Shown piece after piece: positions 2,395-7,888 of a DNA stretch of 9,206 nt (position 1 is the first letter of the stretch; the number at the start of each line of letters is the position of its first letter). The stretch spans positions 1 through 9,206 of IMG/VR virus record IMGVR_UViG_2534681940_000023; one strand, 5' to 3'. Both the position numbers and the translations under genes were made by a program. This stretch comes from a virus. Taxonomy: Duplodnaviria; Heunggongvirae; Uroviricota; Caudoviricetes. The notes beneath the pieces were generated by a model. It had not been told where the DNA came from and ran no database searches. It saw nothing but the letters and a program-made list of their open reading frames with translations.

Positions 2395-3375
2395 TCACCC
2401 CCTGAATCCTGCCGGGATCTGGCTGTAGTCCACGTTGTCGTAACTGGCTTTGAAGTACGGGTCTTCACGTTTTTCTATGTGCGTGCTGACGGACGGCGAT
2501 AAGCGCAGGGAAAGCTCATCCCATTTTTCCCGCAACTTCGACGGGCTGAGCACGTTACGGCACCAGAACGGATCGCGGCTGACGCGGCTGTACATCTCGC
2601 AGATTTGTTTGTGAGTACGACCATCCTGCACACACATCAGGCGAATTTCGTTTGCCCATGCTGTCCAGTTCGGTTCTTTGGGACGAACCACCTCGCCGTC
2701 ACATTCGGCGGCCTGCTCGTACAGGGCGATGATTTTTTTCCAGAGCCACTGTGCGCAGGTCAAATCATCCTGCGTTCCCCACTGGCGCTTTTTAGGGCTG
2801 AATACAACCGCATCAGGATGGCGAGTTAAAAACTCCTGTTCAGCCGTTTGCGTGTCCGGTTGCGAAGCGTCCGGACGAGAAGAGGTTTTATTCTCTGTAG
2901 TAATCTCTGTTGTATTCTCTGTAAGATCGAAATTGGTTTTCCCTTCTCCGCGGCGAGGGGTTTCCCGTGTCCGCTGTGAAGGCTTTCCCTCCTCCGCGAA
3001 ATTGGGTTTTACAGTTTCCCGAAAACGGGTTTCCCCATTTCGGGAAAACTGATTGTTTTCATTGATAAGTTCATTAAGGCGCTCACAATCTATACGGTAG
3101 AACATTTTGTGCTCAAGACGCTTGTTGGTTTCAACCAAAATGCCTCTGGACACAAGATGCTTACGCGCTACAGCCTGTTGTTCAAATGTAAGTCCGGTTT
3201 CGTGTTGTATCTCTTCACGCGTTTTATGTACGCCTTCCGCTGCATGTGCTTTATCCTGCCAGTAAAAAATCTGACCAAAGAAAATAACAGCGTGCGGACT
3301 TCCCATGTATTTAACGAGCCCAGGGTAATAAGCAACCGGATGCCCAAAATCGAGCAGAAGATCAGACGGACGCAT
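2395..3375 (-). CDS. Replication initiation protein, O-like N-terminal region with DnaT-like C-terminal domain
   Basis: Central linker is encoded by iteron DNA, as in lambda O. The C-terminus ...YSQIPAGFRG resembles the C-terminal end of E. coli DnaT as I recall it. Likely start is ATG 3375 (GGGAGG SD 5 nt upstream); the track start at 3381 is GTG. Confidence 0.75.
   Translation of the reverse strand: MRPSDLLLDFGHPVAYYPGLVKYMGSPHAVIFFGQIFYWQDKAHAAEGVHKTREEIQHETGLTFEQQAVARKHLVSRGILVETNKRLEHKMFYRIDCERLNELINENNQFSRNGETRFRETVKPNFAEEGKPSQRTRETPRRGEGKTNFDLTENTTEITTENKTSSRPDASQPDTQTAEQEFLTRHPDAVVFSPKKRQWGTQDDLTCAQWLWKKIIALYEQAAECDGEVVRPKEPNWTAWANEIRLMCVQDGRTHKQICEMYSRVSRDPFWCRNVLSPSKLREKWDELSLRLSPSVSTHIEKREDPYFKASYDNVDYSQIPAGFRG
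2890..3050. repeat. Putative replication origin iterons inside the initiator gene
   Basis: Three 12-bp-period repeats with CTCTGT core (2893, 2905, 2917), then five ~23-bp-period repeats GG(G/C)TTTCCC..CCGCG starting 2935, 2957, 2981, 3004, 3027, including the palindrome CCCGAAAACGGG at 3018..3029. Confidence 0.6.
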
Positions 3376-3595
3376 AGCCACCTCCCAGACGCTTAAACAT
3401 TTTCCCGGACTGAAAAGCCACCAGCGGATAACTCAGGGTATGAGTACGCCCCTGAACCTGACAGACAACCTTCTGGCTTTCTGTGTTGACCAGACAAACC
3501 CGCAGAACGTGACCGTTGCTGGTGGTGAACCACTGCCCCACACGGGGGCAGTGGTTGTATCGGTGATACAGAGAATTCACAACACGACGAATCAT
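3362..3595 (-). CDS. Hypothetical protein (77 aa)
   Basis: ATG start overlaps the upstream stop as ATGA; its 3' end overlaps the O-like start. No recognisable family. Confidence 0.5.
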   Translation of the reverse strand: MIRRVVNSLYHRYNHCPRVGQWFTTSNGHVLRVCLVNTESQKVVCQVQGRTHTLSYPLVAFQSGKMFKRLGGGYASV

Positions 3596-3786
3596 GGACG
3601 CACCTCCGCCGTTGTGATGTATTTAACCGGGCTGCCTTTCATTGCGATGATTTCACACATCTCCGCTGCTTTACGTTCCGCTGTTTTCCTGGATTTATAG
3701 CGGCGGTGCCAAACAGACGTATCCGTGCGAACTGATACATCGTTTCTGTATTCCGTAGTGGAGATGATGATTTCGTAACTAATCAT
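3592..3786 (-). CDS. Hypothetical protein (64 aa)
   Basis: ATG start overlaps the Rha stop as ATGA (translational coupling). No recognisable family. Confidence 0.5.
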
Positions 3787-4346
3787 GGGCGTACCTCCTT
3801 GTCAGAACCATTCAGCCTGGAATCAACAAGTGCAGCACCAAAAACAGCATCACCTACACGGTCGTACAGTTTGCCAGCCAGCGGAGATTCAACAGCCTTA
3901 AGCATGGGATAAAGCTGGCTTCTCCAGATTTGATGGATTTCACGCAAATGCAGGTATACGCCTCTGGCGTTTTGTGCGACAGATGACATCTCAGCCGCAC
4001 CAGCTCCTGATAAGCTCCTCTCCATCTGGTTAAAGGCATTGATGTATGCCTCTTTGAACCGGGCGGCACGCTTGCCAGTGAAGCCCATAGCAAGGAATGC
4101 GAAGCCGTCGCGGGTGATTTGATAGCAGGGAAGTTTGCGAGTACCGCCGTTGGGCTGGCGTACCAAAATTGATGTCTCCGCAAAATTGCGGGCACAAAAC
4201 TCTGGAGAACAATCCAAAATGCGGATCTTTTTCAGAACATCGTCATGACGTTTAGAGAAGAAGTCAGCAACAGCCAAAGAAGATGTAACAGCCTGACCAT
4301 CAACGATGGCAATTTCAGGTTGAGAGAGAGTTGGGAAAGTAGTCAT
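3783..4346 (-). CDS. rha: Phage regulatory protein Rha (187 aa); C-terminal part of the 553-aa track ORF
   Basis: [32 protein letters not shown] is the Rha N-terminal domain signature, and it starts about 10 residues after the ATG at 4346, as in typical Rha proteins. AGGGG lies 9 nt upstream. Confidence 0.8.
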
Positions 4347-4638
4347 GGTGACAGCCCCTATGTTGAATTCAAAGAACTCACCACATGGGACGCCAATCAC
4401 AGAGGTGGTGAGACGTACAGGGTTGGCGTAACCGGTCAACATAGAACCCGGCGCATCTTGCGATGCCCCTGCACGCCCCACCATAATTTGGACGTAGCAA
4501 TGCTCATGATACGAAAAGACCGCATGAGCGCGGTTATGCTCTATATTGAATTCCAGGACGCCAATCCCGACACCCGCTTTATAAGGTGCCTGAACAGTGT
4601 AACGTCCCGAAATTGAGGAATCAATGTTTTGATAAAAT

Positions 4639-5031
4639 TCAGCGATTAGACGCTTCTTTTCTACCCATATTAACTTTGAACAAGAGCTCCATACGACGAG
4701 TCCAGACACCACGTTCTTTGAGTTGTGCTCTGGCTTCTTCGCGCTCAGATACGGAAGTTCTGACAATACGATTTCCAGCCAGATTGCGGCGATATTCTCC
4801 AAACGCGACTGACTGAAGGTATGCAGCGGAGCTTTTGTACTGATAGATGGCTCTTCGAAGGCTGTTTTTATATTCCTTAGGTATATGTCCGAGATCGGCA
4901 AAAAGCTCATGAACGATATCGTGAACAAGCGGAACAACTTTGTATGGAATAACAAAGAAGCTTTCTGGATAGCGTTCAGCCAATACTTTAATGATTTCTT
5001 TATTTGCAAGATGCCTTGCTTTTCTTCCCAT
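4639..5031 (-). CDS. ProQ/FinO-domain RNA-binding protein (130 aa)
   Basis: [17 protein letters not shown]...[18 protein letters not shown]...GNRIV...EEARAQLKE parallels the ProQ N-terminal FinO-like domain (KEVIAFLAERFP...LRSALRLYTSSWRYLYGV...EHARKQLEE, from memory). GGAG SD about 10 nt upstream of the ATG. Confidence 0.75.
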
Positions 5032-5091
5032 ATACCATTCTCCATTACTCCAGATATCAGAATGATATATCCAGGTTCAAGCAGTTCAAGC

Positions 5092-5444
5092 TTATGCTGG
5101 TGCTTCGCACTCAACAAAATCACGACGAAACAACCACAGCGGGCTGAAGCATTCATGCGGATAACCATCACGCAGGTAAATAACCCGCTGTGTTTCCGGT
5201 TCCCAACGAATGACTCTGACGGGCACTCCGTAGTGATCTTTGAACCAGCGGTTAACTTGTTGCAAAGGACTGTCTCCTTCTGCCGGTTGAAATCACCCAC
5301 AGCCCACTCTGCAAATCTGTGGGTTACAATTTCCCTGTCACCTGGTACATTCACTGCATAGCAATACTCCACCTTCGCTTTTCCACCCGGTACAGGAAGC
5401 GCAATCAGTTGCGAGCGACGGTAGTGTGTTGTTAAACTGTTCAT
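5092..5444 (-). pseudogene. Frameshifted gene of unknown function: N-terminal 50-60 aa in one frame, C-terminal 57 aa in the -1 frame
   Basis: ATG 5444 is ATGA-coupled to the upstream gene and encodes a protein-like [52 protein letters not shown], after which that frame turns low-complexity. The -1 frame from about 5292 to the TAA at 5092..5094 encodes [56 protein letters not shown]. Confidence 0.45.
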
Positions 5445-6082
5445 GCGTTAGTTTCTCCACAACCAGAAGCAATCGACGCCACGACGCCCGGAGCTGCACA
5501 CTCGCGGGCGTTACTCTTTTCCGGCGCACAAAAAACACGAAATAACAGTGTTAAATGCTCCTTCCACTTCGCCATTACTTGGTAGCTGTTCTCTTCGATT
5601 TGCTCACGCTCAGCCTGGTCAATAACTCCATCAGCAGTTGCCTTGCGTAAGTACTGGGAATGCTTGCCAATCCATTCTATTGACTCCATCAGCCGCTGAT
5701 TAATGTCACCATTGTCAATGTCATCAATGACCACCAGCGGCACAAACACCCCATTACTACGACGGGCTATTGCATCCGTTACATGCCTGGTACCACTGGC
5801 ATCCTGTAAAACCATGGCCCACTCAAGTGGAAAAATTTGATCCCCACCGCTACGCAGTCTGTTATGCAATTGATCTTTTGCTGGGGTGATATCATCAGAT
5901 TTATACAAACCAAGAATTTCTGCTGCTTCCTCATAGCCATGAGGTAAATCAGCAATCGTTCTTCGTATTGCTGCCACCAGCCATGCTGGTTGCTTATCAA
6001 CTTTCCATTCAGGTTCTTTACCCACGTTTAAGCCCTCATATCTGTGGTTTCTGTAAATCGATTTATCCATTAGATTTTTCAT
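5441..6082 (-). CDS. Phage regulatory protein in the CII/YdaT position (213 aa); function assignment tentative
   Basis: Sits immediately downstream of cro-like and upstream of the replication genes; the AAEILGL segment looks helix-turn-helix-like. Start taken at ATG 6082 (alternatives 6070 or the track's 6139, which would overlap cro by 77 nt). Confidence 0.5.
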
Positions 6083-6263
6083 AAAGCTCAGGTTTAAATG
6101 GCAACCGTCCGCAAGTTCTATATGCAGCCTCTGCTGCACGTCCTTTTGGAATTAACTGGCCAGGACGGTTTCGCCACTGATAAACGGCTTCAGTTGTTAT
6201 GCCGAAAAAAGCAGCAACTTTCTCAATGCTGCCGAAGTAGCTTTCGATATCGTCAGTCGTCAT
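6063..6263 (-). CDS. cro: Cro-like HTH transcriptional regulator (66 aa)
   Basis: Small HTH protein (SIEKVAAFFGITTEAVYQWRNR) divergent from the cI-like gene; GGAGGG SD upstream of ATG 6263. Confidence 0.75.
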   Translation of the reverse strand: MTTDDIESYFGSIEKVAAFFGITTEAVYQWRNRPGQLIPKGRAAEAAYRTCGRLPFKPELYEKSNG

Positions 6264-7533: not shown

Positions 7534-7739
7534 CTCACGTACCTACCACCTCGCCTGATGTGGCTAAAAGCAGGCACATAACAGCTAAGTATTTTCAACC
7601 AGAGAGAATCCTTAGCGTTGTGGTGAATGCGGCTCAGCGCACGCGGGTTAAGGTTGAGACTGACAGTCGACCTTCTGTGGATACCCACCCGCCTGGTGTG
7701 CAACCTTCGCCAGGCACCGGGAGGCACCCGGCACCACAA

Positions 7740-7799
7740 CAGCCACTGCTTTGGCGGTACCAGTTTGTACACTTGCTTCCGGCTGGTACCGCTCTTTTT
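7740..7799 (+). ncRNA. dicF: DicF-like small RNA (candidate)
   Basis: GCTTTGGCGGTACCAGTTTGTAC... closely resembles the core of E. coli DicF (GTTTGGCGGTATCAGTTTTAC..., from memory) and ends in an intrinsic terminator. The 5' end is not determinable from sequence. Confidence 0.45.
7754..7799 (+). terminator. Rho-independent terminator of the DicF-like sRNA
   Basis: 10-bp GC-rich stem GCGGTACCAG (7754..7763) pairing with CTGGTACCGC (7783..7792), 19-nt loop, then TCTTTTT (7793..7799). Confidence 0.6.
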
Positions 7800-7888
7800 A
7801 CAAAACAGAGAAGAGCATCACCGGACGACGGGCTCATAACCCAATCCACCCGGGCGGCTGCCACCGCAGGTGCTCTTCTCTGTTTTGT
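7800..7888 (+). repeat. 18-bp perfect inverted repeat (ACAAAACAGAGAAGAGCA / TGCTCTTCTCTGTTTTGT) with 53-nt spacer; candidate long RNA hairpin
   Basis: Left arm 7800..7817 is the exact reverse complement of right arm 7871..7888. The stem can extend with G-U pairs into the terminator U-tract. It lies 35-50 nt upstream of the RBS of the next gene. Confidence 0.8.

Follow-up and report, generated by a model that had tools for sequence, protein, structure and literature searches.

Among the FinO-domain proteins, FinO and FopA act as chaperones for antisense RNAs of plasmids, and ProQ and RocC are regulators encoded by the chromosome. To our knowledge, no RNA partner has been assigned to the catalogued FinO-domain proteins of phages, nor has any protein cofactor been reported for the P1 immI and Gifsy-1 isrK systems. 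In FinO-FinP-traJ of F-like plasmids and FopA-Inc-repZ of pCol1B9, a mobile element encodes a FinO-domain protein and a structured antisense RNA, as is the case at the locus described here. The antisense RNA of these systems stops translation of a master-switch gene by loop-loop pairing, and the proteins read a hairpin and its 3' tail, not a sequence (PMC9977716). The same review of the FinO/ProQ family places phage-encoded homologs in a heterogeneous branch, with none described functionally (PMC9977716). In the immI operon of P1 (c4-icd-ant), c4 RNA represses the production of Ant proteins (PMC8546580), and the isrK-orf45-anrP locus of Gifsy-1 has the architecture of the RNA module reported below (PMC4825925).

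We analysed a stretch of 9,206 nucleotides of viral DNA (the window). On its minus strand, a gene for a FinO-domain protein is followed by an RNA module with the same parts as P1 immI and Gifsy-1 isrK-orf45-anrP (PMC8546580, PMC4825925). The locus differs from those two in that a FinO-domain gene precedes the module, whereas none is described there. It differs from FinO-FinP and FopA-Inc in lying in a prophage and in having a C4/IsrK-class RNA with two-site (a/b) recognition and an antirepressor-type target. A FinO protein of a mobile element paired with an antisense RNA is thus an arrangement of a known kind; the linkage to C4 in a prophage is what appears to be new. We consider it probable, with appreciable room for doubt, that the FinO protein is a cis-encoded, accessory and dedicated chaperone of the adjacent immI/IsrK-type antisense switch.

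The FinO-domain gene and its product

The genes and signals around the FinO ORF are the following.

6063-6263, minus strand: Cro
5441-6139, minus strand: YmfL/CII-like gene
5092-5265, minus strand: DUF4222 gene (Pfam PF13973, 63.2 bits)
5062-5089, minus strand: promoter-like TTGAAC-16-TATCAT between the DUF4222 gene and the FinO ORF (consensus match only)
5040-5043, minus strand: GGAG Shine-Dalgarno sequence, 8 nt 5' of the FinO ATG (read from the sequence)
4639-5031, minus strand: FinO ORF, 130 aa, ATG to TGA (ORF call)
4641-4639, minus strand: stop codon of the FinO ORF (sequence)
3783-4346, minus strand: Rha-family regulator/antirepressor-type gene, 187 aa from the ATG at 4346 (Pfam Phage_pRha, 95 bits; PHROG 821)
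Residues of the FinO protein: a single FinO domain (approximately 10-107), then W110, which is conserved, and a C-terminal helix of basic character (112-128)

Along the minus strand, Cro is followed in turn by YmfL/CII-like, DUF4222, FinO ORF, isrK leader, C4 RNA and Rha. The first-pass annotation had put the FinO gene between the CII-position regulator and Rha, which is roughly right, but the DUF4222 gene and the RNA module also intervene. The DUF4222 gene is the constant upstream neighbor of the FinO gene in the Escherichia copies. A start resembling that of orf45 is found at 4484, inside C4 and in frame with Rha. A 553-aa ORF (3783-5444) was considered as a real protein and rejected, as it consists of Rha plus an open frame across the C4 RNA, the leader and the FinO and DUF4222 genes. 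The calling of "Ash family" and over-long "Rha" proteins over non-coding RNAs is a recurrent annotation error.

In the HMM search that the first-pass annotation had suggested, the product of the FinO ORF matched the ProQ/FinO family (Pfam PF04352) with 51.7 bits and an E-value of 1e-13 over residues 10-107 (profile positions 4-99 of 109); the gathering score is 27. Judged by its sequence, the 130-aa protein is a member of the PF04352 domain family and an ortholog of neither ProQ nor FinO, because its scores are far under both NCBIfam equivalog cut-offs (41.7 bits against 127 for ProQ, NF003434; 18.4 bits against 136 for FinO, NF010317). The linker and the Tudor-like C-terminal domain of ProQ are absent, and beyond the domain the chain has no more than a short helix before its end at residue 130. 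In comparison with FinO, the prophage protein is a bare domain with a short basic C-terminal helix and without the long N-terminal helix. The plasmid tra-region context of FinO is also absent, as all 14 E. coli copies lie in chromosomal prophages. The domain call itself is not new; the RefSeq name of the protein is already "ProQ/FINO family protein" (WP_038813125.1).

The AlphaFold2 model, calculated from a 19-sequence family alignment, has a mean pLDDT of 92.2 and shows the helices and a hairpin at 80-91. When it was compared with the PDB using Foldseek, the top 26 matches were all FinO-domain structures (probability 1.00, TM up to 0.80), and no other structure matched better than an E-value of about 3. 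The top fold matches are RocC, Lpp1663, NMB1681 and FinO (7rgt/7rgu with TM of approximately 0.65-0.8; 6s10; 3mw6). The FinO domain of RocC, Lpp1663 and NMB1681 are of similar size and fold and conserve the Tyr/Arg pocket for the 3' end. They differ from the prophage protein in sequence (16-27% identity) and in being chromosomal, with RNA partners that are trans-encoded or global. By sequence, the nearest solved structure is the N-terminal domain of E. coli ProQ (5nb9, E 9e-6), followed by the Legionella ProQ homolog (6s10) and RocC. Enterobacterial ProQ is a chromosomal global regulator, whereas the protein described here is prophage-encoded and locus-linked. The FinO/ProQ-like domain that the first-pass annotation had read in the 130-aa protein is confirmed by the profile score, the confident model and the fold matches.

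Mutagenesis of ProQ showed that RNA binding depends critically on K54, R58, Y70, L71 and R80 (PMC7192607). Their equivalents in HMMER alignments are K55, R59, Y71, L72 and R81, so that all five are common to both proteins. In the crystal structure of RocC with RocR, a pocket formed by Tyr87 and Arg97 holds the 3'-terminal nucleotide, Arg75 contacts the RNA backbone, and the β-turn residue Gly52 shapes the pocket (PMC9674577). The equivalents of Y87, R97 and R75 are present as Y71, R81 and R59. In the subfamily alignment Y71 is invariant, and P34, L35, Y65, G86, A100, R101 and W110 show no or almost no variation. The near-universal β-turn glycine (G37 of ProQ, G52 of RocC) is Asp38 here. This position is Gly, Asp, Asn or Lys across the subfamily, and the AlphaFold2 model has Asp38 capping the N-terminus of helix 39-47. 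The equivalents of R32, K35 and R69 of ProQ are not basic. As far as sequence comparison goes, the loss of the glycine and of these three basic residues weighs against a dedicated chaperone.

The isrK-C4 RNA module

A complete module of the P1-immI/Gifsy-1-IsrK type lies on the strand of the FinO gene, starting 50 nt past its stop. Its parts are as follows.

4596-4624, minus strand: PisrK-like sigma-70 promoter, TTGATT-17-TACACT, 15 nt past the FinO stop (sequence)
4513-4589, minus strand: isrK-type leader (Rfam RF01394, 54.1 bits, GA 50)
4558-4564, minus strand: leader b1 site (pairing with C4)
4538-4549, minus strand: leader a1 site (pairing with C4)
4519-4534, minus strand: leader intrinsic terminator, a stem and a CUUUUC tail (sequence)
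4401-4488, minus strand: C4-type antisense RNA (Rfam RF01695, 80.1 bits, GA 45)
4390-4396, minus strand: b2 target site, complementary to b' of C4 and a repeat of b1
4356-4366, minus strand: a2 target site, complementary to a' of C4 and a repeat of a1

The transcription start of the PisrK-like promoter is predicted at approximately 4589. The leader has two hairpins, and a weak Rfam match to c4-a1b1 was seen at 4550-4602. C4 starts about 150 nt past the FinO stop codon and is made of a 17-bp closing stem, two inner hairpins, the sites a' (4436-4447) and b' (4423-4429), and a 3' CCACC tail. Its fold has an energy of -46 kcal/mol (z -5.1). The a2 site overlies the Shine-Dalgarno sequence AGGGG of Rha. 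The duplex of leader and C4 has an energy of -59.9 kcal/mol, compared with -42.8 ± 4.7 kcal/mol in shuffled sequences, and none of 300 shuffles was as good. The RNA module has a working base-pairing logic. All the marks of a P1 immI/IsrK-type locus are found in the window: a C4 match with its fold, a/b complementarity, and an antirepressor-type gene next. The assignment of Rha as antirepressor-type is made by family and is putative.

The first-pass annotation had also described a DicF-like sRNA and a long hairpin in this prophage. The Rfam search gave no DicF match at E ≤ 1 in the whole window, and what was read as a long hairpin may correspond to the closing stem of C4 (17 bp; C4 at 4401-4488). 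The candidate partner of the FinO protein is then the adjacent immI/IsrK-type antirepressor switch, and not DicF or host sRNAs generally, because isrK and C4 are immediately downstream and this arrangement is kept in 10 of 12 lineages (see below).

The leader terminator at 4519-4534 is the first terminator past the FinO stop codon, and ProQ is known for protecting the 3' ends of mRNAs (PMC12086684). The FinO protein might then bind the leader terminator only as the 3' end of its own mRNA, with no help to the pairing of C4 with its targets. Such a role leaves unexplained why the downstream unit is a C4-class antisense switch and not any terminator. In an Acinetobacter lineage, moreover, the terminator is approximately 500 nt away, past a separate promoter. 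We regard protection of its own mRNA alone as very unlikely, and a dedicated chaperone of the switch as the better account.

Distribution and conserved linkage to C4-class RNAs

The FinO gene was found in 14 of 5,426 complete E. coli genomes. All these copies are chromosomal, lie in prophages, and are 97.5% identical. The isrK-C4 stretch is present in at least 1,356 of the same genomes, and about 99% of the E. coli isrK-C4 modules are without a FinO gene. The gene is dispensable for the switch, because at least 1,356 E. coli genomes have the module and only 14 have the gene; P1 and Gifsy-1 also work without it. In an E. coli prophage lacking the FinO gene, the DUF4222 gene adjoins the RNA module directly. 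The lambdoid phage mEp460_4F5 is 98% identical to the window over 76% of the window length, and a single 112-aa gene replaces the whole DUF4222-FinO-leader-C4-Rha block.

An exhaustive HMMER search gave approximately 20 clusters of single-domain relatives with 124-131 aa. Genomic context was obtained through exact-protein look-ups for 12 lineages; identity between any two of them does not exceed 51%, and its median is 30%. Ten of the 12 have a C4-class RNA on the strand of the FinO gene, downstream of it. These are listed with identity to the window protein, source, RNA and the gene that follows.

Window group, 97-100%: Escherichia, lambdoid; isrK and C4 (two tandem units in L005); Rha
P0002, 51%: Salmonella, P2-like prophage beside cpxRA; c4-a1b1/isrK and C4; Derepression-family gene
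P0005, 41%: metagenome; isrK-like and C4; contig ends
P0012, 37%: metagenome; a1b1/isrK; contig ends
P0008, 36%: metagenome; C4; Bro-N
P0010, 34%: Acinetobacter, P2-like prophage; C4; 101-aa ORF overlapping C4
P0006, 35%: Salmonella, lambdoid; two sRNA-Xcc1 units; ORF6N
P0009, 38%: metagenome; sRNA-Xcc1; Bro-N
P0011, 31%: metagenome; sRNA-Xcc1; AntA
P0018, 29%: metagenome; weak isrK and C4; Rha

The lineages with a module span Escherichia, Salmonella, Acinetobacter and metagenomes, and both lambdoid and P2-like backbones. In eight of the nine cases that could be measured, the distance from the FinO stop to the RNA is 97-160 nt. Every lineage with a module has a promoter of the TTGAC. type at or just past the FinO stop, and an intrinsic terminator separates this promoter from the C4-class RNA. 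The effector gene after the RNA varies and belongs to five antirepressor-type families (Rha, Derepression, ORF6N, Bro-N and AntA). Matches to sRNA-Xcc1 were counted as C4-class because they have in common with C4 a closing stem, two hairpins, a CCACC-type tail and the position between terminator and antirepressor; this grouping is architectural, homology is not proven, and no C4-model match overlaps them. Treating them as unrelated RNAs was set aside given this common layout and position. The identity matrix showed no clear pattern between protein clades and RNA type (C4 or Xcc1).

No RNA module was present in two of the 12 lineages, one from Xenorhabdus (L002) and one on a short contig (L019). 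The Xenorhabdus copy adjoins HigBA-like genes and IS fragments. As a control, a 196-aa FinO protein outside the subfamily has housekeeping genes as neighbors and no C4-class RNA nearby. Chance placement of the FinO gene beside a C4-class RNA is not credible, as illustrated by a rough binomial estimate (P of approximately 4e-14) that assumes one such RNA per 10-kb locus and independence of lineages which are not truly independent.

In the window and in the lineages L007, L020 and L017, C4 positions of approximately 42-53 and 57-66 pair with the leader and with sites just 5' of the effector AUG. The a'/b', a1/b1 and a2/b2 sequences are entirely different in each of these four, that is, they show compensatory co-variation among three partners. 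A protein factor common to these lineages must therefore read the architecture and not the a/b sequence. FinO domains are known to read RNA structure (PMC9674577). In the Acinetobacter lineage (L017), the same promoter/operator block of 34 nt stands 5' of the FinO gene and again 5' of the leader. This duplication was rejected as a general feature; the window has no such repeat, and in L015 it is marginal (11 nt). Feedback of C4 on the FinO gene was likewise rejected: in the five lineages inspected, the 160 nt 5' of the FinO ATG contain no site complementary to a'/b'.

The suggestion in the first-pass annotation that the phage encodes a chaperone for its sRNAs gains from the order of FinO gene then C4 in 10 of 12 lineages, while the DicF context in which it was put fails. 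A broader role would make the adjacency meaningless: the protein could be a general-purpose RNA-binding "moron" with host or other-prophage RNAs as targets, as a mimic or competitor of ProQ. Minimal FinO-domain proteins can bind globally, for example Neisseria ProQ (PMC9977716), and the gene is a rare accessory insertion (14 of 5,426 genomes). It may have its own promoter; the promoter-like site at 5062-5089 showed no conservation across the other lineages. The Xenorhabdus and L019 copies are without an RNA module, and in strain GB089 a single FinO gene accompanies three isrK-C4 modules, which makes action in trans possible. However, a random position is hard to reconcile with what is seen in 10 of 12 lineages of about 30% identity, where the gene lies 97-160 nt 5' of a C4-class RNA and backbones and effectors change (the rough P of about 4e-14 holds under the assumptions given above). 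We judge a general-purpose role unlikely.

Adjacency could instead result from mosaic cassette co-inheritance of a protein with a non-RNA or vestigial role. Relative to mEp460_4F5, the DUF4222-FinO-RNA-Rha block is one replaceable cassette, and several surface basic residues and the β-turn glycine have been lost. Against this, the ORFs are intact in approximately 20 clusters, the pocket Tyr and Arg are invariant or nearly so, and the fold is predicted with confidence. Effector genes have also been swapped with the FinO-RNA adjacency kept. Such hitch-hiking of the gene therefore appears highly improbable, and we retain a dedicated chaperone of the C4 switch as the best explanation.

A search with tblastn using the FinO protein found no homolog among 50,697 phage records (P1 included) at E 1e-5. 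In the plasmid search, the only match was a true proQ (36% identity), and scans of viral contigs with P0002, P0003 and P0005 and a metagenome scan gave no matches. FinO-fold proteins of other phages are present in BFVD. Those of Sinorhizobium phage phiM9, Aeromonas phage 4_4572, Salmonella phage 7-11 and Escherichia phage SU7 are FinO/ProQ-domain proteins of the same fold (E 1e-6 to 1e-3), but with identities of 11-30% they were undetected by tblastn. These four are mostly virulent phages. A phage-borne FinO domain is thus not new in itself. What appears to be new is a conserved module of a minimal FinO-domain gene, a promoter with a terminated leader, a C4-class RNA and an antirepressor-type gene, in phages of different types from distant hosts. 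A full-text literature search that covered few subscription-journal papers turned up no study connecting FinO-domain proteins with C4-type RNAs, and this absence is not proof.

A candidate cofactor of prophage immunity RNAs

The proposed mechanism builds on the domain, the fold, the retained contact residues, the pairing logic of the RNAs and the conserved linkage. We infer that the protein binds RNA, which RNA it would bind, and what the effect might be, as follows. By analogy with RocC-RocR, FinO-FinP and FopA-Inc, the FinO protein would clamp a hairpin and its 3' tail. The most likely binding site would be the leader terminator hairpin with its 3' tail, and the FinO mRNA would end at this terminator too if transcripts from PR or from a FinO promoter stop there. 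An alternative site would be the closing stem of C4 and its tail. The identity of the ligand is uncertain because C4 is a processed RNA without a U-tail. Binding would stabilize the RNA and speed up loop-loop pairing of the leader or target sites with C4. This would set the threshold for Rha translation and so affect the stability of lysogeny and immunity. The effect could go in either direction, that is, tighter repression of Rha by C4 or stronger activation of the IsrK type.

The intrinsic terminator in every module is a canonical ligand of FinO domains and supports a role as chaperone. The Hfq independence of IsrK action (PMC4825925) and the presence of IsrK among the ProQ-associated prophage sRNAs of Salmonella (PMC5391140) also support it. 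The linkage, conserved in sequence comparisons despite swapped effectors, backbones and hosts, and the 34-nt block repeated in Acinetobacter point the same way. The two lineages without an RNA module weigh against it, and so does the absence of the gene from P1, Gifsy-1 and about 99% of the E. coli modules. The FinO gene is upstream of the leader promoter and so outside the leader transcript, which we also count against it. Part of the conserved adjacency could reflect inheritance as a mosaic block.

A wider reading is more tentative, and we hold it as possible but somewhat doubtful. The prophage FinO subfamily (approximately 125-131 aa) may be an unrecognized class of cofactors for immunity RNAs of the C4/IsrK/sRNA-Xcc1 type. 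Its members would read the architecture of the terminator or closing stem, the a/b sequences would give each phage its immunity specificity, and action in trans would be possible. If this is true, the plasmid FinO-FinP paradigm would extend to the lysis-lysogeny control of phages. The protein of one prophage could act in trans on co-resident C4 modules and compete with host ProQ, and several prophages sharing a cell would then have coupled induction thresholds.

In P1 and Gifsy-1, antirepressors are under the control of immunity RNAs of the C4/IsrK type. At least a quarter of the complete E. coli genomes contain the isrK-C4 module. The genetic pairing of FinO gene and C4 yields a concrete and cheaply testable hypothesis, which involves one protein, two RNAs of approximately 80 nt and a translational read-out. 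It bears on how RNA-based immunity switches of phages are tuned and on why host ProQ associates with prophage sRNAs.

A FinO block with reading frames called across its RNAs

Outside one block, phage mEp460_4F5 and the window are 98% identical. The block lies between a YmfL/CII-like gene and a replication gene, and as a whole it takes the place of a single 112-aa gene (L029, 4026-4364). The window features considered here are as follows.

3362..5441: replaced block, with DUF4222, FinO, leader, C4, Rha and two small ORFs (phrog_7046; DUF4222-like phrog_1153)
3783..5444 (-): 553-aa open frame, from Rha through the C4 RNA, isrK leader, FinO gene and DUF4222 gene
4484..4482 (-): orf45-type ATG, inside the C4 5' arm
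7599..7801 (+): sub-threshold STnc100-like match, region leftward of the cI-like repressor

The 553-aa frame was rejected as a protein; spanning both RNAs and the FinO and DUF4222 genes, it is an open-frame artefact. Across leader/C4 RNAs, PGAP often annotates a 285-287-aa 'Rha' or 'ash family protein'. When translated, window 4347..4646 (-) matches Pfam Phage_ASH (PF10554) with 41 bits; thus, at least part of the family signal here is translated leader/C4 RNA, the orf45 region.

The orf45-type ATG shares its frame with Rha, and no stop intervenes. This makes a 233-aa orf45-Rha fusion, starting within C4, possible. Such a product would resemble the fusion noted in Shigella dysenteriae (PMC4825925).

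Neighbours in other lineages and other small RNAs

In Xenorhabdus (L002, 4055-4661 and 4992-5372), a homolog with 44% identity and a closely matching C-terminal tail adjoins HigB/HigA-like genes and IS fragments. No C4-class RNA was found beside it, and this copy may be decayed or relocated. Elsewhere, in a metagenomic lineage (L015, 679-4589), the FinO-leader-C4 unit divergently adjoins genes for typical components of anti-phage defence (GmrSD_N and AAA_15/AAA_21).

In the Salmonella lambdoid prophage carrying P0006, a homolog of the FinO protein, we identified a strong match to isrJ (RF01393; 101.7 bits) directly after the Q antiterminator gene (L011 10134-10208; L012 9192-9266). The STnc100-like match in the window, at 36.3 bits (E 4e-5), lies below the family's gathering score of 47.

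A putative shared operator block and repeated isrK-C4 modules

An Acinetobacter P2-like prophage (L017) carries a 34-nt block, AGTGAATCACTATCTTGACATAGTGGCACACTAT, in two identical copies (about 4934-4967 and about 5790-5823), one 5' of the FinO gene and the other 5' of the leader/C4 unit. Its -35 box sits within an inverted repeat, and the longest match in shuffled sequence was 13 nt. The shared block suggests that a single operator co-regulates the two units.

The module itself can be repeated. A viral contig (L005) carries two tandem isrK-C4 units 3' of the FinO gene, within 4443-5000.

4443-4519 and 4818-4893: isrK elements
4544-4631 and 4910-5000: C4 RNAs

On the E. coli GB089 chromosome (H31; L001), the isrK-C4 stretch is matched at three places, compared with one FinO gene. 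It is therefore conceivable that a FinO protein acts in trans, serving modules carried by other prophages in the same cell.
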